NCBI GenBank assembly: GCA_030601705.1
Contig: JAUWBM010000001.1
Coordinates: 3,473-67,472, forward strand
Length of the DNA stretch: 64,000 nt
Direction of reading: 5' to 3'
Source: Thermoplasmatota archaeon
GTDB lineage: Archaea > Thermoplasmatota > E2 > DHVEG-1
Positions 18,492-61,456 of this stretch are shown here, piece after piece. The position numbers and the translations under genes are program-made. The notes under the pieces are model-generated. The model had not been told where the DNA came from, ran no database searches, and was given only the letters and a program-made list of their open reading frames with translations. Numbering within the stretch: the stretch's first letter is position 1; the number at the start of each line of letters is the position of its first letter.

Positions 18492-18792
18492 TGGTAAATT
18501 CAAAGTGTGGCTTGAGGAGAAAAAGATTGGTGATGATCTCCTCTACATTCTAGGTGGAGGTGAACGAACTCATATTGGAGGAATTGTTTTCTGCGAACCA
18601 AATAAAGAACCTCAGATCATATATTTAGCAGGGCATTATGATGATATTGTTTTAAAAACAATTGCCGAGACAGCATGTAAAAAATACGGCACCAAAGTAG
18701 TTGTAACCGGTGGCATTCATATAGATAATGCTACAAAAAATGATATCGAGAAATTAGTTGAAAATTGTAGGGAGCTAGAAAAATGTATTTAA
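18475..18792 (+). CDS. small uncharacterised protein (105 aa) embedded in the mevalonate operon
   Basis: ORF track; both ends overlap neighbouring genes, suggesting translational coupling. Motifs GGGERTHIGGIVF and VVVTGGIHID; no family assigned. Confidence 0.4.
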   Translation: MITSGDGKFKVWLEEKKIGDDLLYILGGGERTHIGGIVFCEPNKEPQIIYLAGHYDDIVLKTIAETACKKYGTKVVVTGGIHIDNATKNDIEKLVENCRELEKCI

Positions 18793-19967
18793 CTAAAGAA
18801 GAAGAGAAAATTCTTGATGGCGATGAAGGGGAAGTAGAAGCGAGATTGTTTAGGCTGCTTGTGCGATTGGGAGAAATATACGGTGCTGATAAGATGATAC
18901 CTGTAGGATCTGTTCAAGTTGCAGGTGTTTCTTACAAATCCATTAGTGATCCGGGTACAGAGTTCTTAGAAGATATGGCATCAAAAGGTGCCAAGGTAAA
19001 GGTACTCACCTATCTCAATCCTGCAGGAATGGATCTTGAGAATTGGAAGAAAATAGGCTTTCCAAAGGATTTTGCAAAGAATCAGCTGAGGATAATGAAT
19101 GCATTCAAAAGCATGGGCATTGTAATCACTTCTACCTGTACACCGTATCTTGCTGGTAATTTACCACGTTTTAGAGAGCATATAGCCTGGTCAGAATCTT
19201 CTGCGGTTTCATTTTCTAATTCCGTAATTGGAGCGAGAACCAATAGAGAAGGAGGGCCTTCTGCTCTTGCTGCTGCTATTTGCGGTAGAACGCCAAACTA
19301 TGGATTGCATCTTTGGGAAAAACGTCAACCTAACATTAAAATTAAGGTGGACGCTGACATGGACTTTAATGCTGATTTTGGTGCTCTTGGATATTTTGTT
19401 GGTAAGCAAGTTAAAAATAAGATTCCGTACTTTACAGGCATAAAAAATGCAAACACAGACCAGTTAAAGGCACTTGGTGCCGCAATGGCTGCCTCAGGAG
19501 CAGTCGCGTTGTATCACGTCGAGGGGTTGACACCAGAGGCGGATTTGGTTGAAAAGGATGGTTTGGAAACTATAGACGTTGGTAAAAAAGAACTTGATGA
19601 AACCTATGAGAAACTGAATTCCGGTAAAGATCCAGATATTGTGATCCTAGGATGCCCACATGCATCTCTTAGAGAGATTTCGACGCTTGCGGTCAAACTT
19701 AAAGATAAACGTTTGAAGAAACCCATTTGGATATGTACTTCAAGAATGATGAAAGAGGCAGCAGATAGAATGGGTTTCACCGAGATAATCGAGAAGGCAG
19801 GAGGCTACATTGTTGCTGACACCTGCATGGTTGTTTCACCTATTGAGGAAATGGGATATAAAACTACAGGTGTAAACTCCGGTAAAGCAGCAAATTATTT
19901 GCCAGGCTTTTGTAAACAGGATGTTGTCTTTGCAAATATAAATAAGCTGATAGAGGTGCAATCATGA
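18783..19967 (+). CDS. aconitase X catalytic subunit (DUF521; phosphomevalonate dehydratase large subunit candidate)
   Basis: MYLTKEEEKILDGDEGEVEARLFRLLVRLGEIYGADKMIPVGSVQVAG, typical AcnX start. Confidence 0.8.
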   Translation: MYLTKEEEKILDGDEGEVEARLFRLLVRLGEIYGADKMIPVGSVQVAGVSYKSISDPGTEFLEDMASKGAKVKVLTYLNPAGMDLENWKKIGFPKDFAKNQLRIMNAFKSMGIVITSTCTPYLAGNLPRFREHIAWSESSAVSFSNSVIGARTNREGGPSALAAAICGRTPNYGLHLWEKRQPNIKIKVDADMDFNADFGALGYFVGKQVKNKIPYFTGIKNANTDQLKALGAAMAASGAVALYHVEGLTPEADLVEKDGLETIDVGKKELDETYEKLNSGKDPDIVILGCPHASLREISTLAVKLKDKRLKKPIWICTSRMMKEAADRMGFTEIIEKAGGYIVADTCMVVSPIEEMGYKTTGVNSGKAANYLPGFCKQDVVFANINKLIEVQS

Positions 19968-20353
19968 AAGGAAGAATGATATCCCCTGGAAAGATCGAGA
20001 GCGTAGCTATTGTTTCAGAGGAACCTATTGGTTTCTATGGAGGGATAGATATAAAAACTGGTACCGTTATCGAAAAAGATCATCCACTAGAAGGGAGGTC
20101 GGTGAAGGATAAGATACTTGTTTTTCCATGCGGTAAGGGTTCGACAGTTGGATCCTATGTTATCTATGGACTAAAGAAAAATGGGGTAGCACCAAGTGGT
20201 ATTATCAACAAAGAGACAGAAACAATAGTAGCGACAGGTGTAATATTAGCAGGTATTCCATGTGTTGACCAAATAGAGATAGAAAAAATAAAAGATGGAG
20301 ACACTGTTTTATTAGATGCTGATAATGGGATAGTAACAATACAAAAAAAATAA
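19964..20353 (+). CDS. aconitase X swivel-domain subunit (DUF126; phosphomevalonate dehydratase small subunit candidate)
   Basis: ~129 aa; GKGSTVGSYVIYGLKKNGVAPSGII motif; start overlaps the stop of the large subunit. Confidence 0.8.
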   Translation: MKGRMISPGKIESVAIVSEEPIGFYGGIDIKTGTVIEKDHPLEGRSVKDKILVFPCGKGSTVGSYVIYGLKKNGVAPSGIINKETETIVATGVILAGIPCVDQIEIEKIKDGDTVLLDADNGIVTIQKK

Positions 20354-20503: not shown

Positions 20504-21757
20504 TTGTTCATTGGAACGGGTGTTATTATTCCATCAACTGGAACCACAGTGGTAAATAAACCTACTATTTCAACATTTCATGACGGTACCACCTTGTACG
20601 TTGGTGGGAACGGAACAGGGAACTATACGAAAATTCAGGATGCTATCAACGCTGCATGGTATGGTGACACTATTTTTGTGTATGATGATTCATCACCATA
20701 TTTTGAAAGTGTTAATTTAAATAAACGTATTTTCTTGATTGGTGCGGATAAAAATACAACCATCATTGATGCTGAACACAAGGGCAATGTGATTACCATT
20801 CAGTCAGATGGCGCTACAGTTAGTGGATTTACCATTCAAAATTGTAAGAGACCAGTTAGTTATAATTTTCAGTATTCTGTAATTGTAGCTATAGGAAGAG
20901 AAAACCTCGTCATTAAAAACAATATCATTTCAATTGGTCATATTGAATACAACGACTATGTTGCAGGGATATTTCTTCAAAATTCTTCAAATAATCTAAT
21001 TCAATACAATGTTTTATTCGAAGATTATCCGAAAGGGCGAAGTGTGGGTATAATGATTAGTGATTCAGCTTTTAACAATGTCTCTTGGAATGACATCTCA
21101 GGGGATTATTCTGTCGGTATCGAAATACGGTTCCTATATGAACCTGGCTCTTGTAAAGATAATATTATTTATGGAAATTATATTCACCATAATATGTATG
21201 GTATAGATAATTATGGATATAATACTACCATAATTAACAATACGATTTCTCATATGAATTACAAAGGTATTAGCAACGATGGTGATTATACTCTTATTTC
21301 TGGTAATATTATTATGGATAATGGTGATGGCAGTGAATTTTCCTGTGACATCATGTTAACTGGACCGTTATTTGGGGCATCTAGCAGCTATGTCTCAGAT
21401 AATATCATTTCAAATAACAATCCTGCTGGTATTTGGATTTTAGAAAATAAAAATTATATTTCAGATAACCACATTTCAAATAACATTCAAGTTGGTGTCT
21501 ACATCGATTATTCATACAACAATGTTATTATCAGGAATAATTTCGTTGATAACCCAAAAAATGCATTTTTTACTTACGGCTTTCGTCCATTCAAAAATAA
21601 CAAATTTGATGCTAATTACTGGAGTGAGTATACCGGCAGTGGGAAATTACCAAAAATTATCATTGGCCGCAGAACTGGTTTAATCTTTTTATCCCACTCT
21701 TGGTTCGACATTGATTGGCATCCAGCACAAGAACCATATGACATCCCAGCAGTTTAG
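20504..21757 (+). CDS. secreted right-handed parallel beta-helix repeat protein (NosD/pectin-lyase-like)
   Basis: Repeated ~22-aa N/I/G-rich beta-helix turns (NNIISNN, GIYI, NNxI). TTG start per the track; the open frame extends upstream to encode a TM/signal segment (KKSLTIGIIVLFIGTGVIIPS) with no ATG. Confidence 0.65.
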   Translation: MFIGTGVIIPSTGTTVVNKPTISTFHDGTTLYVGGNGTGNYTKIQDAINAAWYGDTIFVYDDSSPYFESVNLNKRIFLIGADKNTTIIDAEHKGNVITIQSDGATVSGFTIQNCKRPVSYNFQYSVIVAIGRENLVIKNNIISIGHIEYNDYVAGIFLQNSSNNLIQYNVLFEDYPKGRSVGIMISDSAFNNVSWNDISGDYSVGIEIRFLYEPGSCKDNIIYGNYIHHNMYGIDNYGYNTTIINNTISHMNYKGISNDGDYTLISGNIIMDNGDGSEFSCDIMLTGPLFGASSSYVSDNIISNNNPAGIWILENKNYISDNHISNNIQVGVYIDYSYNNVIIRNNFVDNPKNAFFTYGFRPFKNNKFDANYWSEYTGSGKLPKIIIGRRTGLIFLSHSWFDIDWHPAQEPYDIPAV

Positions 21758-21804: not shown

Positions 21805-23091
21805 CTATAACAACGCACGCATACTCCAGGAGACACCTATTCCATTTATGGGTATTTGATGCTCCCCTTCATCATCAGACCACGACAATGTGCCTTCAAT
21901 CTCGCAAGCTCCAACTTTCATACCCATATAGGTTGGGAATTTCCATATTTTATTGTATGAATTTTCTATTTCAATATTTACATCTAATTTTGTGTTTGTT
22001 CCATACAATAATGATTGACTTATAACATAAATAGGATTTAAACTAGGTTTTGCAGTTATACTGAAATCTGCTGGCATTCTTACGAACGGAAATATCTTAT
22101 CATCTTCCCTTGTTATTTTTAGATCAACGTTTTTCAGCTCTGTTATAGTCTCCCCATTATCCGTGGTTATAAGTAAGGTACCAAACGGGTTTATTATGGA
22201 TGTTTTACTAGATATAAACTGAGGAGTTGGATAATAATTACTTTCATAGATGTTCCATCCGTTGTCCAATGTCACATGAAACCAGTCCCATCCGTTGATT
22301 AATCCTTTTGTTACAGCCTTTGGAGACCATGCATGTTCATGATGCCCAGTTCCTTTTACTATAAATTTCTCGCCATCAATTTCTACTGTACCAGTGACTT
22401 CACACCCTGTAAATAGATAATTTGCAATACTGCTTTTTGATTTATCAAACGCTCTACTACCTATTGTCCATATTGGAAGTGAACTTGTTGTATAATCCAA
22501 ATCTATGATAATTTCGTGAGTGTTGTCTATGTCTTTATCTTCAGCATGGACGTGCCAGTTTGGATATTCTCCTTCAGCCCACGAATCCTCAAATTCCACG
22601 TTTACTCCTGGAGAACTTGCTATAAGAGTGCCGGAGTTTAGAATTCCAAGATACCTCTTTTTATTGATCATTCCCCCAAACGTTTTTCCATTCTCACCAT
22701 GCAACACAACTACTAGAAGATCTGGTTTCAATGTTCCGATTAAATCACCTCGAGCCATATGATTGAAGCTTATTGACACAGACCAATCCTTTAATTCACT
22801 ATCCTCATCGTTAAATACTGCCCCAAAGTACCACCATTCCCTAGATATGCGAATTTTATCATAATGCACGCCCTCATCCTCAGGTGAAACATCTCTCCTG
22901 AAAGAGGGTATAAAAGAAGTTGGTGGAGTTGGTATTTCTGGTGGCGGAGCTGTTACATTTTCGTCCTCTGGTGGAGAAACTTCCTCCAATAGTGGTAAAG
23001 AAATATAGCCGGCTTTGTACAAAAAAAGTCCTGCAACTACTATCAATGCTACCACTATTATGGCATCAATCTTTTTTAATTTAATTTTCAT
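21805..23091 (-). CDS. membrane-anchored CrtC/AttH-like (carotenoid 1,2-hydratase family) protein
   Basis: N-terminal TM (IIVVALIVVAGLFLY) and Pro-rich linker; H..D...EWWYF...WDWFHV motifs typical of the hydroxyneurosporene synthase/AttH family. Confidence 0.6.
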   Translation of the reverse strand: MKIKLKKIDAIIVVALIVVAGLFLYKAGYISLPLLEEVSPPEDENVTAPPPEIPTPPTSFIPSFRRDVSPEDEGVHYDKIRISREWWYFGAVFNDEDSELKDWSVSISFNHMARGDLIGTLKPDLLVVVLHGENGKTFGGMINKKRYLGILNSGTLIASSPGVNVEFEDSWAEGEYPNWHVHAEDKDIDNTHEIIIDLDYTTSSLPIWTIGSRAFDKSKSSIANYLFTGCEVTGTVEIDGEKFIVKGTGHHEHAWSPKAVTKGLINGWDWFHVTLDNGWNIYESNYYPTPQFISSKTSIINPFGTLLITTDNGETITELKNVDLKITREDDKIFPFVRMPADFSITAKPSLNPIYVISQSLLYGTNTKLDVNIEIENSYNKIWKFPTYMGMKVGACEIEGTLSWSDDEGEHQIPINGIGVSWSMRALL

Positions 23092-23234
23092 TCTCCACCA
23101 AACTATTTGTTTTTATATATTTCTTTATTATATTTGTTATTAATAGTTTTCTTTACAGTTATTACCATAACTTCTAAAGAACAGGTTTTAATAAAGAGTG
23201 ATAGATTACCCAAAAAACCATTTCGGGTAGAAAC

Positions 23235-23753
23235 ATGATAGAAAAGGGCGATATTGAAAAATGCTTTCCAGAGTTACAATGGATAAAAGATACTAATTTA
23301 AGAGGAAAAGTAGTTGAAGTATGGAAAAAAGCTGCAGACCGTGGTAAATGGAATACGCTCGATGATGTACCATTTACTCTCCTTTTTGAGAATTCAGGAT
23401 TGCTTACTGAACATACAAGACGGATAACACGTTTAGCAAAGAACATTATGGAAGTAAGAGAGGAAGATATTAATGGAGATTATTTGATCGCAGGTGCTCT
23501 TCTTCATGATGTTGGAAAACTTTTGGAATACGAAATCCGTGATGGCAAGGTTGTAAAAAGCGAGTATGGTAAGAGATTCCGCCATCCTGTTTCTGGTTCG
23601 AAACTTGCTTGGGAATGCGGCCTACCTGAGGATATTGTTCATATAATATATGCTCATTCACATGAGGGAGACAAGAGTGAGAGAACCCCCGAAGCGATTA
23701 TTGTTCATCATTGTGACTTTATAGATTTTGAGATAAAGAAATCGATGGTGTAA
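23235..23753 (+). CDS. HD-domain phosphohydrolase
   Basis: GALLHDVGK...HH..D motif set. Confidence 0.7.
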   Translation: MIEKGDIEKCFPELQWIKDTNLRGKVVEVWKKAADRGKWNTLDDVPFTLLFENSGLLTEHTRRITRLAKNIMEVREEDINGDYLIAGALLHDVGKLLEYEIRDGKVVKSEYGKRFRHPVSGSKLAWECGLPEDIVHIIYAHSHEGDKSERTPEAIIVHHCDFIDFEIKKSMV

Positions 23754-23757
23754 GATT

Positions 23758-25245
23758 ATGAGGGTAAAGAACGCTGCGGGTAGGACGATTGAGACTGCTA
23801 TTGGTGATAAAACGCTGAAGCCTTTTGCAGGAGCAAAAAAATACAGTTGGTGTTCAAAGGTTACAAGTTTGACTGACGCATTGAAAAAATGCGGCCTGAA
23901 GAACGGAAATACACTTTCTTTTCATCATCAACTTCGCAATGGTGACAATGTAATCAATATGACGCTTGCTGCAGCACGTGATCTCGATGTTAAAAATATT
24001 AGAATGGCACAGACTGCAATATTTAACGTTCATGAACCTGTTATAGACTTTATTAAAGAGGGTGTTGTAAATAGAATAGAGGGAAGTATTAATGGTGTTG
24101 TCGGAGATTTTGTTTCTAAGCATCCTCTCCCATATCCCGTTGTGTTGCGTTCTCATGGCGGGCGTTGGGCTGCTGTTAAAACAGATGAATTACATGTTGA
24201 TATTGCTGTTATAGCTGCTTCTGCCGCCGATGTGCGTGGGAATTGTACGGGAATTATTGGTGAGAGTGCGTTTGGCCCCATATCTTATTCTGAAATTGAT
24301 GCAATGTGTGCTGATCATGTGATCGTGGTGACTGACAATGTTGTTGATTACCCCTGTAAATTTCAAGAGATTCAGGAGAGATATGTTGATTATGTAGCAG
24401 AGGTAGATCGCATAGGCGATCCCAAAAATATTATGTCGGGTACAACAAAGATAACAGAAGATCCTATGAAACTGCAGATCGCTCGTGATTGTGTTGAATT
24501 GATGGATGCTGTGGGGATTATTAAAGAGGGCATGATTTTTCAGTCGGGTGCGGGTGGAATATCTCTTGCTGCAATGAAATATTTAGATGATAGACTTGAA
24601 GAAAAAGATATAGTTGCAGCTACTGCAACTGGTGGTCTTACAAAGTTAATATGTGATATTTATAAGGCAGGTCGTGTTAAAAATATCTATTATTCCCAAG
24701 TTTTTGATGAGTATTCTGTAAAGTTTATCCAAGAAGATCTTGGACTGCCAGCTGATATTGGTCATTACGCTGATCCAACCTCCAAGGGCCGTACTATTGA
24801 TGGCCTTGATACAGTTGTTCTTGGTGCAACAGAGGTCGATACAAATTTCAATGTTAATGTTAACACACATAGTGATGGTCGACTTTTACATGGTATAGGA
24901 GGTCATCAGGATACATCTGCTGGTTCATCCTTATGTATTATTTCTTGTCCTGTTTTTAGAAAAGCTAACCCGATTGTTAGAGAGAAGGTTACAACAATTA
25001 CAACCCCTGGAGATGTTGTAGACGCCATTGTAACTAATGAAGGGACAGCAATAAATCCCCAGCGGAAAGACATCATTGAAAAGGTAGAGGGGAAAATAAA
25101 CCTCGTTCCAATAGAAGAGCTAAAGAATATGGCATATGATGCAACAGGTGGACCAGAAGAGTTGGACCTTGGCGAAGAAATCGTAGGCATGACGAAATGG
25201 ATGGATGGAACCGTGTTAGATATTATAAAACGGGTTAAAGAGTGA
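23758..25245 (+). CDS. citF: citrate lyase alpha-subunit homolog (citrate CoA-transferase, CitF family)
   Basis: Near-collinear match to CitF: LSFHHQLRNGDNVINM, VVLRSHGGRWAAV, VDIAVIAAS..D..GN, LDTVVLGATEVDTNFNVNVNTHSDGRLLHGIGGHQDT, TTITTPGDVVDAIVTNEGTAINPQR. Confidence 0.85.
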   Translation: MRVKNAAGRTIETAIGDKTLKPFAGAKKYSWCSKVTSLTDALKKCGLKNGNTLSFHHQLRNGDNVINMTLAAARDLDVKNIRMAQTAIFNVHEPVIDFIKEGVVNRIEGSINGVVGDFVSKHPLPYPVVLRSHGGRWAAVKTDELHVDIAVIAASAADVRGNCTGIIGESAFGPISYSEIDAMCADHVIVVTDNVVDYPCKFQEIQERYVDYVAEVDRIGDPKNIMSGTTKITEDPMKLQIARDCVELMDAVGIIKEGMIFQSGAGGISLAAMKYLDDRLEEKDIVAATATGGLTKLICDIYKAGRVKNIYYSQVFDEYSVKFIQEDLGLPADIGHYADPTSKGRTIDGLDTVVLGATEVDTNFNVNVNTHSDGRLLHGIGGHQDTSAGSSLCIISCPVFRKANPIVREKVTTITTPGDVVDAIVTNEGTAINPQRKDIIEKVEGKINLVPIEELKNMAYDATGGPEELDLGEEIVGMTKWMDGTVLDIIKRVKE

Positions 25246-25251
25246 TATAAA

Positions 25252-26022
25252 ATGAGATGGAACACCAAAATCACAAAGGTTGAGCCGAATCATTTGGTAA
25301 CACGTGGTTATAGACAAGAAGATTTGATAGGGAATATACCGTATTCTCACGTTGTATACCTGCTTTTGAAAGGCGATCTGCCATCAAAAGAACATGGAAA
25401 GATGATTGATGCCATTCTTACTGCCTGTATCGATCATGGGGTAACACCTCCTTCATCAATTGCATCTAGAACTGTAGCATCTGGTGGAGTACCCCTTCCA
25501 ACTGCTGTTGCAGCCGGAATTCTATCTATTGGAGATGCTCATGGTGGGGCAATAGAAAAAGGTGCAAAATTCCTGCAAAATGGCATTTTACGTATGAAAG
25601 AAGAGGGTAAAACAGTAGAAGAAATAGCAGAGATTCTTGTTAATGAGCATAAGGAACAACATAAACGGATATCGGGGTTCGGCCACAGGGTTCATACTTC
25701 AGATCCCAGAACAAAAAGACTTTTTGTACTTGCCGAAGAATTAAAAATTGCTGGAAATCATATGGCTCTTTCAAATGCAGTTGAATTAGAACTTGAAAAA
25801 ACATATGGAAGAAAGCTGCCAATAAATGTAGATGGCGCAATAGCAGCAATTATTTCAGATATGGATTTTGACTGGAGACTTGGAAAAGCATTCTTTTTGT
25901 TAGGTAGAGTTGCAGGATTAACTGCGCATGTTTATGAAGAACAAACTCAGGAAAAACCCATGAGAAAAATGTTTTCAATAGAATGTGACTACAACGGTCC
26001 AAAAGAAAGAGATCTCCCCTAA
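25252..26022 (+). CDS. short citrate-synthase-family protein (citryl-CoA lyase-like, CCL)
   Basis: ~256 aa; VVYLLLKGDLP, DAHGGAIE, GFGHRVHTSDPR and C-terminal R..G..AH..EE correspond to citrate-synthase catalytic motifs without the large N-terminal domain. Confidence 0.75.
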   Translation: MRWNTKITKVEPNHLVTRGYRQEDLIGNIPYSHVVYLLLKGDLPSKEHGKMIDAILTACIDHGVTPPSSIASRTVASGGVPLPTAVAAGILSIGDAHGGAIEKGAKFLQNGILRMKEEGKTVEEIAEILVNEHKEQHKRISGFGHRVHTSDPRTKRLFVLAEELKIAGNHMALSNAVELELEKTYGRKLPINVDGAIAAIISDMDFDWRLGKAFFLLGRVAGLTAHVYEEQTQEKPMRKMFSIECDYNGPKERDLP

Positions 26023-26080
26023 TTATTGCTTTCTATCTAGAAAATCTTAAATACTTATGTAGATCATATGGAGATAGTAC

Positions 26081-27400
26081 ATGAAAATTTTGCTGGTATT
26101 TCCTAGGATTGAACACGGTGCATTAACCTGTAAAGATAAAGGGTCATGGAGTTCCATACTCTTTGGCTATCCAATTATAACACTCCCGCATCTTGCAGCA
26201 ATAACCCCGAGTAACCATATTGTCAAAATAGTCAACGAGAATTATGACACCATTGATTTTGATGAAGATGTTGACTTGGTAGGAATAACCTGTTATACTA
26301 TGACAGCGCCACGTGCGTATGAAATTGCAGATGAGTTTAGAGAACAAGGGAAAACGGTTGTATTAGGTGGATATCACCCAACAGCAATGCCAGAGGAAGC
26401 AAAACAACATGCAGATAGCATTGTAATGGGCATGGCAGAAGCGAATTGGCCAAAGACAATTAATGATTTTGAAAATGGAAAATTAAAACCCATATATGAA
26501 AGGGATCATGATTTTGATATATCTAAAGTCCCTCCGTTGAGAAGGGATCTTATTAGACATAACCCGTTCATAGGCGCAATTCAAACAACAAGAGGATGTT
26601 CTAATCGTTGTGAATTTTGTGCAATTAGCAGCTTCTGTGGAAATATGGTAAAACAAAGACCCGTCAAAGATGTTGTCGAAGAAATTAAAAATATGCCTAA
26701 TAATTTGTTTATATTTCATGATCCGCATCTCACCTTACATCGAAAATATGCAATGGAGCTCTTTAAAGAGATGATACGGCAAAAAATTCATAAGGGATGG
26801 GTAGCAAATGGAACGGCAAATATTCTTGGTAAAGCTGAAGAGAAATTTTTAGATCTAGCTCAAAAAGCTGGATGTGTCGAATGGTTCGTAGGTTTTGAAT
26901 CAGTTAATCAGGAGACATTAAATAATATCAATAAAAAACACAACAAAGTAGAAGATTTTAAAAAAATGATAAAAAGAGTCCATGATCATGGAATGACCAT
27001 CCAGGGAGGTATAATCTTTGGGTTTGACGAGGATACACCCAATATTTTTGACACAACACTTGAGACAATTAATGACTGGGATTTAGACGTGCTTGAGGTA
27101 AATATTCTTACTCCTTATCCGGGTACACCATTATTTGAAAGGTTAGACAGAGAGGGAAGGATACTTACAAGGGACTGGAGTAGATATAATCAAGTTGATG
27201 TTGTCTTTAAACCTAATAATATGACCGGAAAAGAATTATATGAGGGTGCAAGAAGAGTAGCTAAAGAATTTTATTCACCCCATAACATAGTAAAAAAATT
27301 AACACAGATTATTATGACAACTAAAAGATTCTCAGGCATCATTCCGTCTGCAACAAGTTTTGCCTTCCGACGTTATTATAAAAGGGATTTTAATTTCTGA
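26081..27400 (+). CDS. B12-binding-domain radical SAM enzyme
   Basis: N-terminal cobalamin-binding-like Rossmann (VDLVGITCYTMTAPRAYEIADEFREQGKTVVLGGYH) followed by the CSNRCEFC radical-SAM cluster motif. Confidence 0.8.
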   Translation: MKILLVFPRIEHGALTCKDKGSWSSILFGYPIITLPHLAAITPSNHIVKIVNENYDTIDFDEDVDLVGITCYTMTAPRAYEIADEFREQGKTVVLGGYHPTAMPEEAKQHADSIVMGMAEANWPKTINDFENGKLKPIYERDHDFDISKVPPLRRDLIRHNPFIGAIQTTRGCSNRCEFCAISSFCGNMVKQRPVKDVVEEIKNMPNNLFIFHDPHLTLHRKYAMELFKEMIRQKIHKGWVANGTANILGKAEEKFLDLAQKAGCVEWFVGFESVNQETLNNINKKHNKVEDFKKMIKRVHDHGMTIQGGIIFGFDEDTPNIFDTTLETINDWDLDVLEVNILTPYPGTPLFERLDREGRILTRDWSRYNQVDVVFKPNNMTGKELYEGARRVAKEFYSPHNIVKKLTQIIMTTKRFSGIIPSATSFAFRRYYKRDFNF

Positions 27401-27576
27401 AATATTTTGTAAATCTTATCATTTCACCTGATTTTCAAAATATGAGAATATAGGATAATTGTCGAAAAGGTGACATTCTCACCGCCATGGGTGGTAGTGT
27501 TTATTATGAGTACACGGTTTGCTGTCGTTGGAAATGAATCTAGAGAAGTTTGTTCAAGTCGTTTATCTCGCACATA

Positions 27577-27951
27577 TTAAATCACAGTCCCTGTATCAGC
27601 ATCACCAACACTTCTGTAGAACTTACCAGGACTTTGAAAGTGCCCTCTTGGATATCTCTTACGAAAATTCGGTTTTTGCTTGGACAATTCCCTAGATGAA
27701 GCACCTTTTAAAAGATGAAAAGCTTGAGAAACACTCATTGTTGGAGGAATTCCAACAACAACATGAATGTAATCTGATATAACGCTTAGTTCCTCGATCT
27801 TGATTTTATGTCTTATAGCAACTTCTTCTAAAATTTCTTCGCGAAGCTTTTTATTTTCCACTTTCATAAACATCTTGTATCTATACTTAGGATAGCATTC
27901 CAAATGGTACAAATTCTGGTCAATGCCATGGCTACCGTTAACCAATTTCAT
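27577..27951 (-). mobile_element. tnpA: IS200/IS605-family transposase TnpA (Y1 HUH) gene, apparently truncated at both ends
   Basis: YHLECYPKYRYKMF...IEELSVISDYIHVVVGIPPTMSVSQAFHLLKGASSRELSKQKPNFRKRYPRGHFQSPGKFYRSVGD matches IS200 TnpA collinearly; the typical C-terminal tail is missing. Confidence 0.75.
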
Positions 27952-28377
27952 ATTTTATCACGTCCTGAGTAGGTAATTTAGATTACCCGCCTGCTCAAGA
28001 TATGAATATTTTTCTAGAAAAAGAGGTGTTTTGGGGAAAATTAGGAAGTGACTTAAAAGGCGGGGGATTTAAACCCTCAAAGTTACATTAATCATTGGAA
28101 CGTTTAGTCCAGTTTTAGGATATCAAGTATGGGCAAACGCGATAGAAAACCCCATTAGACAAAGAGACTTTGTAAAAATAAGTAAAAATTGGATGGGTAG
28201 AGGAAAAATATTTAATCCATTTGTATTTCCACAGGATGGAGCGCGATCATTTGAAACTTTCAAAAGCCGGTTATATACTGGGACGACAAACTGGGTTGAT
28301 TGTGCTACTGGAGCTAATGAAACTGGATGTGAGATCTGGAGAGTTGATCATATTTCTTGAATATTAGAACGGATAAA

Positions 28378-29706
28378 ATGAAAAATAAATTAACAGAAGA
28401 TAAAAACATAATTTTAATTACAGTCGATTGCCTAAGAGCAGATCATCTTCACTGTATAGGTTATCCCAAGAATATTTCTCCTACAATGGATTCTCTGGCA
28501 AAAAATGGAGTTTTATTTACCAATGCTATCGCTAATGCACCATATACGCCTTATTCTATACCCTCTTTTATTACATCTAGAGTTCCGCCCGTAGAAAGAT
28601 TTAAAGAGACAATATCAAGTATTCTTAAGCAAAATGGTTATGCTACTGCTGCATTTAATCCGAATCCTATAGTTTTAACTTCTACCATAACCAGTGGAGA
28701 TAGAATCAACAAAGGTTTTGATACCTTTGATTTGCTGCTTTCTTCTAAAAATAAATATGATTTGACTATTGGAGTAATAAGACAGTGGGGGATGAAATAT
28801 TTTAGAAGAAAACTAAATGAAAACGGTTTGTTTTATAAGATAATTTATTCGATATACGATAAGGCAATAAAAAAATTCCCTGTTTTTTTATGCCCTAAGG
28901 AACATCTAATAGTTCCATCTGCTATGGAAGTAAATAACTATGCGATTGATTGGGTAGCCAAACAAAATGGTAAATTTTTCCTGTGGATTCATTATATGGA
29001 CGTTCATGAACCGTACGCTCCACCGGGATATGAAAATCAAAAAGAGATGATGTATCTTATTACAAAATATAGAGATTTTCCTAATGCGCTTACAAAACTA
29101 GAAATTCAAAAACTAATGAATCTATATGATCTTACAATAGAATATACAGATAGAGCTATAAACGATCTTATAGAAAAATTGGAGAAGTTGAATCAATTTC
29201 ATAATAGTGTTATTATAATAAGTGCCGATCATGGAGATGCATTTGGAGAACATGACAACATTCTTGGTCATGGCGGAAAATTCAAGGCTCAATTTTATGA
29301 TGAAGTTATACATGTACCATTAATAATTTATGGACATAAGGAAAAAGGAATTATCGTTGATAAAGTGGTTCAACTTTTAGATATAGCTCCTACGATCTGT
29401 GAATTAGCAAATGTTCCGATACCAGTTTGTTTTTTTGGAGAAAGTCTTTTTTCTAAATCAGAAAAGGGTGCTATTATTAACTCAAGATCATATATCGGAT
29501 ATAGAACAAAAGAATGCAAGTTGATAATTAATAAATCTAACAGCAAGAGAAATGAATTGTATGATCTCATAAACGACCCTAGAGAAAGAAGAAATATTTA
29601 TAATAAGAATAAGGAAGTTACAAAAAAGTTAGAATTGGAAATGACATCTGTTTTAAAAAAATACAAGAGAAAAAAAGAACTAATTGGGATTGAAACTCAA
29701 TTTTAA
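28378..29706 (+). CDS. sulfatase-like hydrolase/transferase (alkaline-phosphatase superfamily) lacking an obvious C/S-x-P-x-R FGly motif
   Basis: KNIILITVDCLRADHL N-terminal metal-site motif; IISADHGDAFGEHDNILGHGG C-terminal motif. ATG at 28378 is preferred over the track TTG at 28357. Confidence 0.7.
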   Translation: MKNKLTEDKNIILITVDCLRADHLHCIGYPKNISPTMDSLAKNGVLFTNAIANAPYTPYSIPSFITSRVPPVERFKETISSILKQNGYATAAFNPNPIVLTSTITSGDRINKGFDTFDLLLSSKNKYDLTIGVIRQWGMKYFRRKLNENGLFYKIIYSIYDKAIKKFPVFLCPKEHLIVPSAMEVNNYAIDWVAKQNGKFFLWIHYMDVHEPYAPPGYENQKEMMYLITKYRDFPNALTKLEIQKLMNLYDLTIEYTDRAINDLIEKLEKLNQFHNSVIIISADHGDAFGEHDNILGHGGKFKAQFYDEVIHVPLIIYGHKEKGIIVDKVVQLLDIAPTICELANVPIPVCFFGESLFSKSEKGAIINSRSYIGYRTKECKLIINKSNSKRNELYDLINDPRERRNIYNKNKEVTKKLELEMTSVLKKYKRKKELIGIETQF

Positions 29707-29790
29707 TAAAATATTGAGTGTTTTCTTTGTACTGTTCATTGTCCGCCCTCGTAAAATTATTTAAACATATTAACTTATGAAAGGCAAGAT

Positions 29791-31095
29791 ATGGAAAGGA
29801 AACAAAAAAATCCATGGACACCTCAGGATGAGGGAGATCACTATCCTGTCATGAAAGAATGGTGGTGTATCGAAACCCTCTTCAAAACATTAGATGACAA
29901 CAGGAAATGGAATTTTAAGGCCTCAATGGCCTACGAAATGGAGACTCCCTCTTGCTTTATTATCTATTTTCTTTTTGACATAACTTCCAACAAGTGTGTC
30001 GTTCATAATGCACTTAATGATGACATTGAAAAACTATCTCATCAAAAAAATAAGGTTGATTTGAAATATAAAAAATCTACGATATCTGGCCTATATCCAA
30101 ATTATAATATTCATTTCGAAAATTTAAAACAAGATTTTATAATCGACATGGAATACAACGCCAAGATATTACCCCATTGGAGTGCGCAAGATTCAACAAA
30201 CGGATATCTGCCCATAGGTATCGATCATTATAGGTACGGGTGGCTTCTAAATTGCAATCTCAAGGGAACTTTAAAATTAAAAAATGAATCGCATAAAATC
30301 GAAGGTAAAGGCTATCTCGAGCGAGCCTGGGGGAATTGGTCCTACTCAAATCCTTTTAAAAGACTCTCAGGGATTAAAAAAACCGTTTTAACATATGGTC
30401 ATCTTACCAGTTGGTGGTTATCACAACATAAGCCGCGTATACCAAACCGTATTGCCTTTACAACAGAAAATAATCCCTTTGGTTACGACTGGTTCTGGGG
30501 CATATTTGATAACGACTGGAGCGTTTTCTACGGAAATTCCCTATTCTGGTTAAGTGAAGGTCCAGCATTTGGTGTATTAACGCTATTTACCGACGGAAAT
30601 AATTACTTGGAGTTTGGCGATGTGAATTTTCATTATAACAAAACCAAATATATTAAAGAACACGATATGTACTATCCAAGCGACATGACCATCACAGCAA
30701 AACTAGATGATAAAGAGATTCGATTGCGAGCTTGGCCAGTATGCGATGGTTATGAGTTTATTACTCCGTTTAACGATGGTGGATTTTACAAGGTCTTTAT
30801 TATGTGTGAGATGCCCGGACGAATTGAAGGCATCTATTACGATGGCGAAAGATCTGTGAAAATAAAGGGAGATTGTAAGATGGTACCGCAAAGACAGCCA
30901 TCCAGATTAGGTCATAACTCGCTTGCAATTAAATTTACAAAACCTCCTAAAGGAGTTGGCATTTCGTTTGATTTAAATTCACATTACTTGAAGAAAAAAA
31001 TGTTCACCGAGATACAACTGGCTCCTCGCCCAAAGCTTACATTCGATTTAAAAAAAGTTGATGTTTCTAAAATAAACAAAAAAAAAATTTCTTGA
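29791..31095 (+). CDS. CrtC/AttH-like hydratase-family protein (second paralog)
   Basis: DEGDHYPVMKEWWCIETLF and YDWFWGIF mirror the H...EWWY / WDWFH motifs of the first paralog. Confidence 0.6.
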   Translation: MERKQKNPWTPQDEGDHYPVMKEWWCIETLFKTLDDNRKWNFKASMAYEMETPSCFIIYFLFDITSNKCVVHNALNDDIEKLSHQKNKVDLKYKKSTISGLYPNYNIHFENLKQDFIIDMEYNAKILPHWSAQDSTNGYLPIGIDHYRYGWLLNCNLKGTLKLKNESHKIEGKGYLERAWGNWSYSNPFKRLSGIKKTVLTYGHLTSWWLSQHKPRIPNRIAFTTENNPFGYDWFWGIFDNDWSVFYGNSLFWLSEGPAFGVLTLFTDGNNYLEFGDVNFHYNKTKYIKEHDMYYPSDMTITAKLDDKEIRLRAWPVCDGYEFITPFNDGGFYKVFIMCEMPGRIEGIYYDGERSVKIKGDCKMVPQRQPSRLGHNSLAIKFTKPPKGVGISFDLNSHYLKKKMFTEIQLAPRPKLTFDLKKVDVSKINKKKIS

Positions 31096-31099
31096 AAAA

Positions 31100-32467
31100 T
31101 TAGTCATAAAGATTCCTGTTATCAATTAATCTTTTAGCCTTTATTGAATTTCTGTCAAAAGTATTTGGTTCAACAAGTTTTATCTGGGGTTTTGCAATGG
31201 TTTTTGAGTGTGTTATGCCATCTTTAATCTCTGGCATTTTCATTATAGCATCCGCTATTTTTTCTCGTATGGATTCGTTTATCACTTGGCTTTCAGCAAT
31301 TACGGTAATAAAGTCCTTTCCATTTTTTTTATCAAATACTACCTGATATTCAATGATTTCAGGAATATTGAAAATTGCCTCATCAAACATGTTTGTAAAA
31401 AGATTGTCACCTGCTCCAATTGGAATAAGATCATCTGATCTTCCCTTAATTTCAATTCTTTTTAGAGGAAGGCCACAATCACATATACTCGGAATTATCC
31501 TTCCAAGATCATGCGAATTATATCGAATCAAAGGCATCCCCTCTCTATCATAGGTTGTAAAAAGTAATTCTCCAATCTCTCCATCCTCCAATTGTTCACC
31601 AGTTTCAGGATCAACCACTTCAGTAAGAAAATTAGTTTCGCTAAGATGCATGCCATGTTTCTTTTCACATTCACCTGCCATCAGTAATCCAATTTCAGTG
31701 GTGCCATATCCTATAAAAACATCGGCATCCCATTCTTTTTCAATGAATTTTCTCATTGAATTAGGCGTTGGCTCAGCCCCAATAAGAAACTTTTCAATTC
31801 CGAGCCCTTTCAAATCACAGAGTTTTTCCATTTCTTTTGTAAGATAATTGACACGTGAAGAAACATCTGAGAAAATATTTGGTTTATATTCATTTAGAAT
31901 CTCTAATTCTTCCTCAACTAATAATCTCCCTGTAGCAAGTGTTAAACATCCGATAATCTCATATGCTTTATCTAGACAATATCTATTTCCCCATATCTCT
32001 GTACCATATCCCACTTCAAAGGTAAGGCGGACAATGTCTTTGTGTGTAATTCCGTACATGAGTTGCAAACCTGTTGCAGTAGAGACTGCTATCCTTTTAA
32101 TGTCATTTTTCGTAAAGTATGCTTTTTTTGGTTTACCTGTTGTACCGGCCGTCGTAAAAACCTTAATGAACCTATCCTCAGGAACTGAGAAAAAAGATCT
32201 TGGGTCATTTTGTAAGTCTATAGTATCTGTATACGGAATCTTTGTCATATCTTTAATAGATTTTATATCGCTTGGTTTAAGACCATATTTTTTAAAAAGT
32301 CTATGATAGAAAGGAGAAGTATTATATGCATACCTTAAAGATTTTTTAAGTTTTGAAAAATTATATCTATCCAAAGTTATTCTAGTCAATTTACCAAAAT
32401 ACGATTTTTTTGCAGGCTCCTGGCCATTTGATTTTTCTCTCAATCTTGACTTAACAAATGGTGCCAA
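31100..32467 (-). CDS. phenylacetate-CoA ligase / coenzyme F390 synthetase-family adenylate-forming enzyme
   Basis: PaaK-like N-terminus (SPFYHRLFKKYGLKPSDIKSIKDMTKIPYTDTIDLQ...FTTAGTTGKPK) and ANL fold length. Confidence 0.75.
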   Translation of the reverse strand: MAPFVKSRLREKSNGQEPAKKSYFGKLTRITLDRYNFSKLKKSLRYAYNTSPFYHRLFKKYGLKPSDIKSIKDMTKIPYTDTIDLQNDPRSFFSVPEDRFIKVFTTAGTTGKPKKAYFTKNDIKRIAVSTATGLQLMYGITHKDIVRLTFEVGYGTEIWGNRYCLDKAYEIIGCLTLATGRLLVEEELEILNEYKPNIFSDVSSRVNYLTKEMEKLCDLKGLGIEKFLIGAEPTPNSMRKFIEKEWDADVFIGYGTTEIGLLMAGECEKKHGMHLSETNFLTEVVDPETGEQLEDGEIGELLFTTYDREGMPLIRYNSHDLGRIIPSICDCGLPLKRIEIKGRSDDLIPIGAGDNLFTNMFDEAIFNIPEIIEYQVVFDKKNGKDFITVIAESQVINESIREKIADAIMKMPEIKDGITHSKTIAKPQIKLVEPNTFDRNSIKAKRLIDNRNLYD

Positions 32468-32944: not shown

Positions 32945-33940
32945 TTGAAGGCAAATTCAAATTCAAAATATACCATTAGAGACAAACTTTTTGCTCATTT
33001 AGAAACATGGAGACTTTATACTGTAATATGGTGTGGATTAGTTAGTTTAGCTGGATCATGCATTGCTTTTGGAGATTTTCCACCATTAAAAATTGCGTTT
33101 CTAGCTTTTTTTATACCAATGATGGGTTGGACGGCAGGATTATATTTAGCAGATTTTTTAGATAGAAAATTAGATGCTATACAAAAACCTCACAGACCCA
33201 TTCCCTCGGGTAGAATTAAACCATATGAAGCAATTGCAATAGGAGCAATATTTGCATTAACTGGTTTTATACTATCTACCCTATTAAGTCCAAATAATAT
33301 TTTACTTGTTTTTGTAGTAGCTCTATTGGTACTAGGATATGCAAAATTTTCTAAATCTCGCGGTATAGTGGGCAATTTAAATAGAGGATTTGTTACAGTT
33401 GCTACATATTTTTTTGGTGTTTTTTCTATAGGTCAATCTATTCAGGAAATACCAATATACATTTGGTTGCTTTCATTTGTATTTTTAATTCATGATACGA
33501 ACAGTAATTTAGTTGGAGCAATAAGAGATATGGAGGGAGATAAAAAAGGTGGATATATAACAATACCTGTAAAATATGGACTTAAAAAATCAATATTTAT
33601 TTCATTAATTCTAACTTTTACTTGGCTTTCCCTTGTTCTTTATCTACCGTATTATTTCAAATTTTTAAAGATTGAATTCTATCTACTAATGATAATCGAT
33701 GTTTTAATTCTATTCTCCCTTTATGTTTATTTATTCATGACAGTAAAAAATTATTCTAGAGAAAAGGCACTAAAATTCCATGAATTTTTCGTAATAGAGC
33801 GAGTAACTTTAGCATCTGCCTTAATTTTTGGAATTGCAAGTATAAACAAAGCAGGAATTATTTTTGTTATTGCACTTTTAGTTACATATCTCTCTCAATA
33901 TTTACTAAGAAAAAGATATGAGTTTAAGGAGAAAAAATGA
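32945..33940 (+). CDS. UbiA-family prenyltransferase (integral membrane)
   Basis: Multi-TM protein; Asp-rich motifs YLADFLDRKLD and NLVGAIRDMEGD; TTG start per the track. Confidence 0.8.
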   Translation: MKANSNSKYTIRDKLFAHLETWRLYTVIWCGLVSLAGSCIAFGDFPPLKIAFLAFFIPMMGWTAGLYLADFLDRKLDAIQKPHRPIPSGRIKPYEAIAIGAIFALTGFILSTLLSPNNILLVFVVALLVLGYAKFSKSRGIVGNLNRGFVTVATYFFGVFSIGQSIQEIPIYIWLLSFVFLIHDTNSNLVGAIRDMEGDKKGGYITIPVKYGLKKSIFISLILTFTWLSLVLYLPYYFKFLKIEFYLLMIIDVLILFSLYVYLFMTVKNYSREKALKFHEFFVIERVTLASALIFGIASINKAGIIFVIALLVTYLSQYLLRKRYEFKEKK

Positions 33941-34941
33941 AATATGCAGTTATTGGTCTTGGAGCTGTTGGAAGTATTGTTGGCGGTCTTCTTGCTAAAT
34001 CTGGTGAAAATGTAGTTTTAATCGGTAAAAAAAACCAGGTAGAGATAATAAAACAAAAAGGGATAAAGATAGATGGGATTGCTGGTTCGATACATGTAAA
34101 AAATGTTTCTGCATCTATTGATCTTTCATTACTTGAGGATGCGGATGTTATCCTTATATGCATAAAATCTCAAGATACAAAAAATCTTGCTTATGATTTA
34201 AAGAAACATATTAAGAAATCTGCATTAATTATTTCGTTTCAAAACGGTGTGAAAAACCAAAAGAGTTTAGAAGATATAACGGGAAATAAAGTTATTTCAA
34301 GCATCATTCTTTTCAATGCGTTATATTCAAAACCAGGTGAAGTTACCCTTGCAATTAAAGGCAAAATGTTAGTAGAAGCTGATAATTCATGTTGGGATAT
34401 CGAAAAAACTCTATTTAATTCACTTAGAAAAGAAGGATTAGATTCTGAAATTGTAGATGATATAGAAGGTTATCTTTGGAGTAAATTAATTGTCAATCTG
34501 CAAATTGCAGTGACAGCATTAACTGGTCAAACAATAAAAGAATCAACTGTTGATAAGGATTGCAGGGCAATATTAGTTGCAACAATGAAGGAAGGAATAG
34601 ATATTGTTGAACAATCAGGGATTACTCTAAAAACTTTACCAAGTATTGATCCTAGAAGTCTTATAAGAAGGATGAGTTTATTTAATTCTACTTTGCTAAA
34701 AATTGGTAGTAGACTAATGAAAATAAAAGAAAATGCTATAAACTCCATGTGGCAGAGTTTATCAAGAGGTAAACCAACTGAAATTGATTATATAAATGGA
34801 GAAATTGTAGATTTGGCTAAAAAAAATAAATTACAAGCACCAATAAACACAAAACTTGTAGAGCTGATAAAGGATGCAGAAAGAAAACACGCGACAAAAA
34901 GCTTTGAATCTTATGAACTAAAGGAACTCTTGGGAATTTAA
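33937..34941 (+). CDS. 2-dehydropantoate 2-reductase (ApbA/PanE family; 6PGD-like C-terminal domain)
   Basis: MKYAVIGLGAVGSIVGGLLAKSG Rossmann start and GKPTEIDYINGEIV C-terminal motif; start overlaps the UbiA stop. Confidence 0.8.
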   Translation: MKYAVIGLGAVGSIVGGLLAKSGENVVLIGKKNQVEIIKQKGIKIDGIAGSIHVKNVSASIDLSLLEDADVILICIKSQDTKNLAYDLKKHIKKSALIISFQNGVKNQKSLEDITGNKVISSIILFNALYSKPGEVTLAIKGKMLVEADNSCWDIEKTLFNSLRKEGLDSEIVDDIEGYLWSKLIVNLQIAVTALTGQTIKESTVDKDCRAILVATMKEGIDIVEQSGITLKTLPSIDPRSLIRRMSLFNSTLLKIGSRLMKIKENAINSMWQSLSRGKPTEIDYINGEIVDLAKKNKLQAPINTKLVELIKDAERKHATKSFESYELKELLGI

Positions 34942-34985
34942 CTCTGATACTTAATTAAAATTTGAAAAGGAGGATACCTAAAAGG

Positions 34986-35609
34986 ATGGTGAAATTTATT
35001 GGATTTTTATTGAATAAAATAGGTGTAAAATTTAATGCTCATAAATTAAAAATATTTATTGATAAAGGTTTCATTATAATTGAAAAAATTATTACCAAAC
35101 TTATCAAGTTAATTCCTTTTTATCTTGATTTTTACGAGGAAATACTTGAAAAAGAAATAATATTAGCAGATATTTCAAAAAATGATAAAATTGTTCATAT
35201 TGGATGTGGGTCCATTCCTGCTACATGCATCCTTATTACAAAAAAAACAAATGCAAGTATTATTGGAATTGAGAAAAATGAACATTCCGTAAAACACGCA
35301 AAACAATGTGTTTCTCAATTAAATCTTTCAGATAAAATTGAGATTAAACTTTCTGATGCTAGTGATTTTTCAATTAAAAATTTCGATCTCATTATTATAG
35401 CACAAGGCATAACTCCCTATAGAGAAATTTTAGAGAAAATCTCCAAGGACATTAAAAAAGATGCTCGTGTGGTTTTTAGAACAAGTTCGAAAATAAGTGG
35501 GGAGCTTTCCGAAAATGATTTGTTTTTAAAAGATATATTTAAAATAGATAAGATGGTGTATCATAAACAAAATAGTTTGTTAATTTCAATTTTGCTTCAA
35601 AAAAAATAA
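34986..35609 (+). CDS. nicotianamine-synthase-like (NAS/CntL-like) protein, short form
   Basis: DKIVHIGCGSIPATCILI resembles the NAS GSGPLPLT motif; FDLIIIAQ and DARVVFRTS resemble the NAS C-terminal block. ATG at 34986 follows a GGAGG-like motif. Confidence 0.5.
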   Translation: MVKFIGFLLNKIGVKFNAHKLKIFIDKGFIIIEKIITKLIKLIPFYLDFYEEILEKEIILADISKNDKIVHIGCGSIPATCILITKKTNASIIGIEKNEHSVKHAKQCVSQLNLSDKIEIKLSDASDFSIKNFDLIIIAQGITPYREILEKISKDIKKDARVVFRTSSKISGELSENDLFLKDIFKIDKMVYHKQNSLLISILLQKK

Positions 35610-61406: not shown

Positions 61407-61456
61407 CTTTTTAACATTATAGTAAATTATTTACACATATACTAGACATACGTAAC

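Follow-up and report, generated by a model that had tools for sequence, protein, structure and literature searches.

Organization of the Locus

The 64,000-nt stretch analysed here, called the window, belongs to a Thermoplasmatota archaeon. The interval studied (21805-32467) carries two genes for hydratase-like proteins of the AttH/CrtC fold and a gene for a B12-binding (class B) radical S-adenosylmethionine (radical-SAM) enzyme. Genes were called from the open reading frame (ORF) listing together with Pfam and NCBIfam scans. CrtC1 (21805..23091, minus strand) is a 428-aa protein, predicted to be membrane-anchored. CrtC2 (29791..31095, plus strand) counts 434 aa and is without a signal sequence. 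Both were assigned by structure and motifs. The radical-SAM enzyme, 439 aa long, is encoded between them on the plus strand (26081..27400).

An archaeal-type mevalonate operon, recognized by Pfam and NCBIfam matches, lies upstream (16231..20353, plus strand). Downstream, a group of genes of mixed orientation (32945..39027) encodes UbiA1 (32945-33940), an ApbA-type reductase, a NAS-like and a second methyltransferase, ornithine carbamoyltransferase (OTCase) and UbiA2 (38005-39027, minus strand), both UbiA proteins being assigned by family scan. The whole region is flanked by ribosomal-protein, threonyl-tRNA synthetase and RNA-polymerase genes, and it thus sits in the core chromosome. An earlier note on this DNA had listed six genes in the interval (the two hydratase-like genes, the radical-SAM gene, a sulfatase-like gene, a PaaK-like ligase gene and an IS200 remnant), set between the mevalonate operon and two UbiA genes. 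All six are found there by the ORF listing and the family scans, and the set has those neighbours.

Fold and Conserved Motifs of CrtC1 and CrtC2

CrtC1 and CrtC2 align over ~330 residues with 23% identity (BLASTP, 8e-15), which identifies them at the sequence level as true paralogs, as the earlier note had supposed. Their membership of the CrtC/AttH family is marginal when judged by sequence. The Pfam model CrtC (PF07143) gives 21.2 bits for CrtC1, below the cut-off of 22.5, and CrtC2 has zero Pfam matches; some orthologs carry a precomputed PF07143 match. Compared to the PDB sequences, CrtC1 finds AttH (2ICH) at E = 0.003, and a profile built from 91 family sequences reaches this entry only at E = 8e-4.

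The AlphaFold models of CrtC1 and CrtC2 (pLDDT of 82 and 93, respectively) predict a clear two-barrel, lipocalin-like AttH/CrtC fold for both paralogs. In Foldseek searches of the PDB, CrtC1 matches 2ICH at 5.5e-14 and kievitone hydratase (7A0T) at 8.5e-11, and CrtC2 matches 2ICH at 6.8e-16 and kievitone hydratase (7A0Q) at about 2e-12. The structures closest to both paralogs are those of AttH NE1406 (2ICH) and kievitone hydratase (7A0T/7A0Q), with target-normalised TM-scores of 0.62-0.71, but their sequence identity is 11-16% and the archaeal proteins are ~100 residues longer. CrtC1 adds an anchor and a linker, while CrtC2 adds a family-specific insertion of 45 residues, with a helix predicted at 195-212, and is extended at its C-terminus. 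The next matches of both paralogs are the decalin-forming pericyclases Fsa2, CghA and Phm7, followed by a 25-phosphosteroid lyase.

The motifs H…EWW(Y/C) and (W)DWF(H/W), on which the first identification was based, are indeed present in both proteins. CrtC1 contains DEGVH...REWWY and GWDWFH, and CrtC2 contains DEGDH...KEWWC and GYDWFW. DEGxH, EWW and one Asp (D269 in CrtC1, D233 in CrtC2) are invariant, or nearly so, in 91 members of both families. H253-x-W255, which closes the N-terminal domain, and D269 are invariant in 49 CrtC1 orthologs. The invariant polar residues of the CrtC1 family are D72, E73, H76, E85, H253 and D269. Residue 178 of the window CrtC2 is an Arg, this position being a His in 35 of 42 relatives; W180 and D233 are kept.

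CrtC (R. gelatinosus, T. roseopersicina), which hydrates an isoprenoid double bond without a cofactor, belongs to the same fold family. Mutagenesis of CrtC identified His239, Trp241, Tyr266 and Asp268 as essential (PMC4717167). The comparison with CrtC1 covered the His, Trp and Asp of this set: H253-x-W255 appears to match the position of His239/Trp241, and the invariant D269 follows shortly after, like Asp268. The proteins studied here differ from CrtC by a PF07143 score that is under threshold (CrtC1) or missing (CrtC2), and by the Arg that replaces the His in the window CrtC2. Neither the ORFs annotated in the window nor the related loci include carotenoid genes (crtI, crtB, crtD and similar), and a carotenoid role of CrtC1 and CrtC2 is rejected on this ground. 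The sole carotenoid context met is that of P0343, a distant bacterial relative that adjoins a Caroten_synth gene.

The N-terminus of CrtC1 is basic and is followed by a transmembrane helix (residues 7-26 in the AlphaFold model) and by a Pro-rich linker in which an N-x-T sequon is conserved. From these features, CrtC1 is inferred to be anchored with its catalytic domain outside the cell, and it is the one membrane-anchored paralog noticed before. A profile search among 1.84 billion 50%-identity clusters gave 580 representatives of the family at E ≤ 1e-3.

The Radical-SAM Enzyme and Its AttH-Like Neighbours

The radical-SAM protein matches the Pfam families B12-binding (47.9 bits), Radical_SAM (76.3 bits) and DUF4070. 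Its motif C173-x3-C177-x2-C180 is invariant in the alignment, and the length of 439 aa is kept in nearly all orthologs. The best NCBIfam matches are BchE, HpnJ and HpnR, all below cut-off. In the window, the radical-SAM gene and CrtC2 are co-directional, separated by the insertion sequence (IS) remnant and the sulfatase-like gene.

Since the loci collected with CrtC1 are biased, linkage was tested on loci seeded with the aligned sequences of the radical-SAM protein and of its paralogs. This gave 80 loci on metagenome contigs, annotated by hidden Markov models and BLAST. Proteins with at least 60% identity to the window enzyme were taken as orthologs, and those with less than 50% as a paralog clade. 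In 14 of 38 orthologs, the next gene downstream on the same strand, with a gap of -3 to 84 bp, is AttH-like; this is so in none of 20 paralogs (Fisher p = 0.001). When AttH-like genes at any position up to 6 kb away are counted, the numbers are 19/23 orthologs and 0/10 paralogs (Fisher p = 1e-5). This contrast between the two clades is sharp. At two further ortholog loci the AttH-like gene is convergent, and at most of the rest it lies at 0.8-2.8 kb. Direct adjacency is also seen in L010 and L011, two of the loci seeded with CrtC1.

Three types of AttH-like proteins are encoded beside the radical-SAM orthologs: CrtC2 itself, a CrtC2-like protein with 37-46% identity, and a third type of ~350 aa without an anchor, which shares 30-33% identity with CrtC1. 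The family representatives P0288 and P0294 correspond to this third type, beside the same radical-SAM ortholog. At two loci (L101 and L107), a gene of the geranylgeranyl-reductase family (TIGR02032, E = 8e-30, below cut-off) is inserted between the radical-SAM and AttH-like genes. In L012, L089, L105, L153 and L172, the gene of the third type is convergent with the radical-SAM ortholog. Loci with the third type often also hold a second B12 radical-SAM paralog of ~430 aa.

The paralog clade (41-48% identity; L148, L151, L156, L157, L160, L161, L163, L166 and L168) is without an AttH-like neighbour and often adjoins a distant PaaK/CapK-like ligase (24-31% identity). Ligases of the PaaK/CapK type are found near the radical-SAM gene in 10/19 orthologs and 5/7 paralogs, so that the pair of a radical-SAM enzyme and an adenylating ligase recurs in both clades.

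Conservation of the Locus in Thermoplasmatota

A scan for CrtC1 orthologs with one genome per species gave 77 loci, all of them in Thermoplasmatota metagenome-assembled genomes (MAGs), and the homologs of both CrtC1 and CrtC2 belong to uncultured Thermoplasmatota. The closest relatives are 91-96% identical. Among the carriers are the MAGs 3300003432D, SM1-50, M11B2D, SG8-52-3 and M9B1D, which have been described as genomes of Thermoprofundales, or MBG-D (PMC6461988).

Neighbours were counted by tblastn of the window proteins against all CrtC1 loci. The small subunit of AcnX adjoins CrtC1 in 61 of 67 loci. Mevalonate kinase stands at a distance of at most 9 kb in 38 of 42. On the side opposite AcnX, an HD-domain gene is located at most 2.6 kb upstream of CrtC1 in 39/55 loci, and a citryl-CoA-lyase domain is found within 7 kb in 34/44. 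This neighbourhood is kept from 96% down to 44% CrtC1 identity, and the genes beyond the block vary by genome. The radical-SAM ortholog follows the unit of HD, CitF and citryl-CoA lyase genes in 15 of 20 loci with a CrtC1 identity of at least 60%, and in 2 of 19 loci below this value. CrtC2 stands between UbiA1 and OTCase in many of the relatives. The mevalonate operon, UbiA, the geranylgeranyl-reductase-family gene and the radical-SAM gene are thus among the lipid genes kept near the hydratase-like genes in relatives, where a lack of such co-conservation would have spoken against a lipid function.

CrtC1, the radical-SAM gene, CrtC2 and the ligase gene resemble the rest of the window in GC content, in GC content at third codon positions (GC3) and in codon usage, and the HD, CitF and citryl-CoA lyase genes are core-like in GC and codon usage as well. 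The comparison with core genes, which had been suggested as a check for an island, therefore gives a match for the conserved genes. On this core-like composition and the synteny, a lateral transfer of the conserved genes is rejected. They are inherited vertically in Thermoprofundales-type Thermoplasmatota, and the gene order is inherited across these genomes; it is kept in ~70 species-level genomes of Thermoplasmatota. Local gains seem to be limited to the IS remnant, a gene fragment, the beta-helix gene and perhaps the sulfatase-like gene, whose GC3 is 0.22.

UbiA1, the ApbA-type reductase and the NAS-like gene (32945-35609) have the lowest GC3 of the window (0.15-0.19, versus ~0.28 for most genes). 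These three genes are inverted relative to the ligase gene when compared to L101, where all four are co-directional.

Comparison with Known Lipid-Modifying Systems

Ted, a B12 radical-SAM enzyme of Bathyarchaeota, desaturates the tails of glycerol dialkyl glycerol tetraethers (GDGTs), and its products are converted to hydroxylated GDGTs (OH-GDGTs) when Hgs, an AttH-like protein whose gene overlaps that of Ted, is expressed together with it (bioRxiv 10.1101/2025.10.20.683597). The sources of this pair are Ca. Bathyarchaeota B1_G15 and a Guaymas scaffold, and the identifiers given in the preprint are DRO69_02625, GBSed_1000338310 and GBSed_1000338311, the latter being Hgs. In the same preprint, homologs of Hgs (BLASTP 1e-80, at least 300 aa) were found almost only in Methanobacteriota and Bathyarchaeota, and Thermoplasmatota are said to lack Hgs; Ted homologs were defined by E ≤ 1e-100 and at least 500 aa (bioRxiv 10.1101/2025.10.20.683597).

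The locus studied here is alike in that a B12 radical-SAM gene stands beside an AttH-fold gene (adjacent in relatives) in an archaeal lipid neighbourhood. The logic that may be proposed is also the same, with a double bond made in a saturated tail and then hydrated. However, the phylum is different, and the likeness, compared by the published description, lies at the level of fold, domains and gene order. With 439 aa, the radical-SAM enzyme is shorter than the 500 aa from which Ted homologs were counted. There are two to three AttH paralog types here, one of them predicted to be exported and membrane-anchored, and the neighbours of the module include the mevalonate operon, the gene of a PaaK-like ligase and those for citrate cleavage. 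The survey and the length limit of the preprint suggest that the window proteins are not close orthologs of Ted and Hgs. No Bathyarchaeota-type Ted-Hgs locus was found among the contexts of seven family representatives. By analogy, the window pair probably works like Ted-Hgs, but it is not assigned here to either of their families.

Has, the hydroxyarchaeol synthase of Methanosarcina, likewise leads to a hydroxylated archaeal lipid via hydration of a double bond, as is proposed here. It belongs, however, to the unrelated phytoene-desaturase family and acts on unsaturated biosynthetic intermediates. No Has-type gene was seen in the window.

Proposed Function and Alternative Explanations

The predicted fold, the motifs, the mevalonate context, the linkage of radical-SAM and AttH-like genes, the inserted reductase gene and the precedent of Ted-Hgs are the basis on which the interval may be read as part of a vertically inherited isoprenoid-lipid neighbourhood with a two-enzyme lipid-tail module as its core, a reading to which we give an even chance. 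The 439-aa radical-SAM enzyme would modify unactivated carbons in the isoprenoid chains of archaeol or GDGTs, where it would most likely introduce a double bond, as Ted does. CrtC2 would then hydrate this bond by acid catalysis from the conserved Asp, yielding a tertiary alcohol, i.e., a hydroxylated membrane lipid. CrtC1, with its full His-x-Trp...Trp-Asp-Trp set, might perform the same kind of hydration or dehydration on lipids at the outer face. An action of the AttH-like and radical-SAM genes on isoprenoid lipids is proposed with moderate confidence, and a product that would specifically be a hydroxylated tetraether with lower confidence. The idea of the earlier note that these enzymes tailor isoprenoid chains is to this extent upheld by the Ted-Hgs precedent and the lipid-gene context, the function itself being an assignment by analogy. 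The analysis demonstrates fold, paralogy, conserved motifs and linkage of the genes; from these, the substrates, the types of reaction and the place in the cell are inferred.

Several points weigh against this lipid-tail module. The linkage counts come from related genomes of a single phylum, and shared descent inflates them. The radical-SAM gene is co-transcribed with citrate-cleavage genes and is near ligases in both clades, which a small-molecule pathway would fit equally. More distant AttH-like relatives, among them P0298, P0325 and P0362, stand in contexts without lipid genes. The survey that places Hgs outside Thermoplasmatota and the length of 439 aa speak in the same direction, as does Arg178 of the window CrtC2 at the position of the essential His of CrtC. 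In addition, an extracellular domain is an odd place to hydrate tails that were unsaturated by a cytoplasmic radical-SAM enzyme.

Among the other explanations, the chemistry of the radical-SAM enzyme could be a different one. It might be a methylase (Gmm/Cgm/Pgm-like or acting on the backbone) or a Grs-like ring synthase, the AttH-like partner using a pre-existing double bond or being a cyclase or dehydratase. The characterised archaeal lipid B12 radical-SAM enzymes include both ring synthases and methylases, the sub-cut-off NCBIfam matches comprise a cyclase (BchE) and a methylase (HpnR) in addition to HpnJ, and pericyclases and a lyase share the AttH fold. The gene context, with hydratase-fold genes and, at two loci, a reductase gene, rather points to double-bond chemistry, and this alternative is considered somewhat improbable. 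A second possibility is that the target is a prenylated small molecule, quinone- or cofactor-like, and not the core membrane lipids. UbiA1 would then attach the prenyl chain to a head that is made or activated by the reductase, the NAS-like transferase and the ligase. Methylation or desaturation would fall to the radical-SAM enzyme, and hydration of the prenyl tail to the AttH-like protein. In L101, L099 and L128, the genes for UbiA1, an ApbA-/epimerase-type reductase, the NAS-like protein and the ligase are co-directional, which fits such a pathway, as do the ligases near both radical-SAM clades, the scores of both UbiA proteins below the cut-offs of digeranylgeranylglyceryl phosphate (DGGGP) synthase, and a respiratory system that is reported for Thermoprofundales in the title of PMC9585477. 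On the other hand, neither the window nor the related loci showed genes for aromatic precursors or quinone biosynthesis, the closest experimental precedent for a radical-SAM enzyme with an AttH-like protein acts on GDGTs, and CrtC1 is tied to the mevalonate operon itself. This pathway is judged unlikely.

The AttH-like proteins could also be surface or secreted binders of the lipocalin type, or hydrolases, their proximity to lipid genes being merely an order inherited within one archaeal order. The predicted export and anchoring of CrtC1 would agree with this, as would the signal peptides of many distant relatives, the JGI label of CrtC1 homologs ("predicted secreted hydrolase"), the lipid-free contexts of P0298, P0325 and P0362, and the restriction of all 77 genome loci to Thermoplasmatota. 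The invariant polar residues of CrtC1 argue for catalysis, however, and the three AttH types recur beside the radical-SAM ortholog and never beside the paralog clade. The adjacency of CrtC1 and AcnX persists despite differing flanks, and the geranylgeranyl-reductase-family gene is inserted within the module itself (L101 and L107). A role as binders or hydrolases appears doubtful. Far less probable still is the interpretation of the interval as a laterally acquired accessory island marked by an IS element and non-ATG starts, as the earlier note had it. The IS200 remnant and the gene fragment, the low GC3 and rarity of the sulfatase-like gene, and the variable beta-helix gene would suit an island. 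For CrtC1, the HD, CitF and citryl-CoA lyase genes, the radical-SAM gene, CrtC2 and the ligase gene, it is contradicted by their composition, by their synteny across dozens of species-level genomes, and by the ribosomal-protein, aminoacyl-tRNA-synthetase and RNA-polymerase genes that flank the region. It survives for the IS remnant, the beta-helix gene and possibly the sulfatase-like gene. Altogether, what had been observed in the earlier note is partly confirmed, and its interpretation is partly supported.

Sedimentary OH-GDGTs and related tetraethers serve as temperature proxies, and for this reason their producers matter. Hgs is the sole known lipid hydratase of the AttH type, and was reported in 2025 to be absent from Thermoplasmatota. 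If the lipid-tail module is real, Thermoprofundales, a very abundant and widespread benthic group, would become a candidate in situ source of such lipids. The lipid-modifying repertoire of archaea would gain a new radical-SAM clade and possibly an extracellular enzyme. A bolder and rather improbable extension is that Thermoprofundales carry a lineage-specific system for finished lipids, composed of the 439-aa desaturase and two to three AttH-fold hydratases, with CrtC1 as an anchored ecto-enzyme. In that case they would supply hydroxylated or unsaturated tetraethers to sediments, and CrtC1 would be the first extracytoplasmic archaeal enzyme that modifies lipid tails. The genes are short and well defined, and suit direct tests in the hosts in which Ted and Hgs have been expressed.

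Other Genes in and around the Interval

The mevalonate operon comprises genes for mevalonate kinase (TIGR00549, 251 bits versus a cut-off of 163), a UbiD-family decarboxylase, an LpdD-like chaperone and the large and small subunits of AcnX (537 bits). The UbiD-family and AcnX genes are presumably mevalonate-pathway enzymes, as we know them from the archaeal pathway. The small LpdD/proteasome-chaperone-like gene (PF21758, 18475-18792) overlaps with the UbiD-family and AcnX genes at their ends and is kept there in nearly all relatives. Behind the operon, a NosD-like beta-helix protein is encoded (20504..21757, plus strand; Pfam Beta_helix and NosD). Most relatives have no such gene there, and their CrtC1 directly adjoins the small subunit of AcnX. 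In L009, the closest relative, the same slot is occupied by a different beta-helix gene (34% identical).

A unit of three plus-strand genes shares a divergent promoter region with CrtC1. It is headed by the HD-domain gene (23235..23753; Pfam HD, 5e-12) and continues with a CitF-like citrate CoA-transferase (23758..25245; Pfam CitF, 421 bits; TIGR01584, 472 bits, slightly under the cut-off of 501) and a citryl-CoA lyase (25252..26022; NF004866, 309 bits, above the cut-off of 245). In several relatives, among them L005/L006 (5901-9853), genes that by their domains are of the ATP-citrate-lyase type take the place of CitF and the lyase behind the same HD gene; in relatives with the replaced pair, the lyase matches at 41-44% identity. 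Since two different citrate-cleaving systems share one position, the unit was read as a citrate-cleavage unit of central metabolism. In this lineage, citrate cleavage keeps a persistent link with the mevalonate operon, and may feed the neighbouring mevalonate pathway. These three genes had been overlooked when the whole interval was taken as tailoring genes. That description may hold for the hydratase-like and radical-SAM genes, but about a quarter of the length is citrate cleavage.

The minus-strand ORF at 27577..27951 encodes a Y1 transposase of the IS200 TnpA type (Y1_Tnp, 76 bits). Its HUH motif is degenerate (DYIHVV, which reads YIH) and an in-frame TAA stands just ahead of the catalytic Tyr motif (...TGTVI*YVRDKRLEQ); because of these two defects, the ORF is taken to be dead, and its sequence marks it as a pseudogene. 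The IS200 tnpA fragment announced earlier is thus there, as an inactive remnant. Next to it, on the plus strand, 28088..28357 is a 3' fragment of ~90 codons. It corresponds to residues 324-414 of a 414-aa repeat protein of L089 (37% identity, E = 6e-16 by tblastn), with tblastx matches to L110 and L089. The intact protein is encoded in L089 (1970-3214) and L110, within the neighbourhood of radical-SAM, AttH-like and ligase genes, and the fragment is by its sequence a rearrangement scar.

The sulfatase-family protein (alkaline-phosphatase superfamily; Pfam Sulfatase, 150 bits) is encoded at 28357..29706 on the plus strand, and its gene probably starts at the ATG at 28378. An ortholog between the radical-SAM gene and CrtC2 was found in L096 only, one of ~160 related loci. 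There, the order is radical-SAM, sulfatase-like (61% identical), CrtC2-like and convergent ligase, without an IS. By this order, the spacer between the radical-SAM and sulfatase-like genes bears two scars, the IS and the fragment, and the sulfatase-like gene is a shared but rare accessory gene. The order in L096 is also the reason to reject the sulfatase-like gene as a pure passenger of the IS. Formylglycine-dependent sulfatases carry a C/S-x-P-x-R motif near the N-terminus. The N-terminal region of the protein reads ...ILITVDCLRADHL..., with VDCLRAD where the formylglycine motif is expected; no C/S-x-P-x-R motif is present in it, and the equivalog models score far below cut-off.

The PaaK/F390-synthetase-like adenylate-forming ligase (31100..32467, minus strand; AMP-binding and AMP-binding_C_2) is convergent with CrtC2. 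It scores 225 bits for PA_CoA_ligase and 221 bits for the DVU1553 family, both below cut-off. Orthologs with 63-75% identity, also convergent with CrtC2, are found in L010, L011, L017-L019, L091, L096, L098, L099, L101, L114, L117 and L118. The ligase is thus a conserved neighbour, with a possible role in lipid tailoring. The sulfatase-like and ligase genes had both been counted among the tailoring genes, and of this their presence stands.

The homology of the ligase extends to residue 1, and its start is likely a TTG. A TTG start is also likely for UbiA1 and for the beta-helix gene, both outside the interval. The earlier note had seen at least four non-ATG starts, whereas inside the interval that of the ligase alone is well supported. 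TTG starts say nothing about transfer, and hence give no evidence for acquisition.

Both UbiA proteins score best against models similar to DGGGP synthase, below cut-off. The scans for tRNAs and Rfam families gave no match inside 21805-32467. Elsewhere in the window, at 61318-61407, ARAGORN reports a 90-nt tRNA with an abnormal four-base anticodon, which the Rfam tRNA model also matches; it is probably an intron-containing archaeal tRNA.

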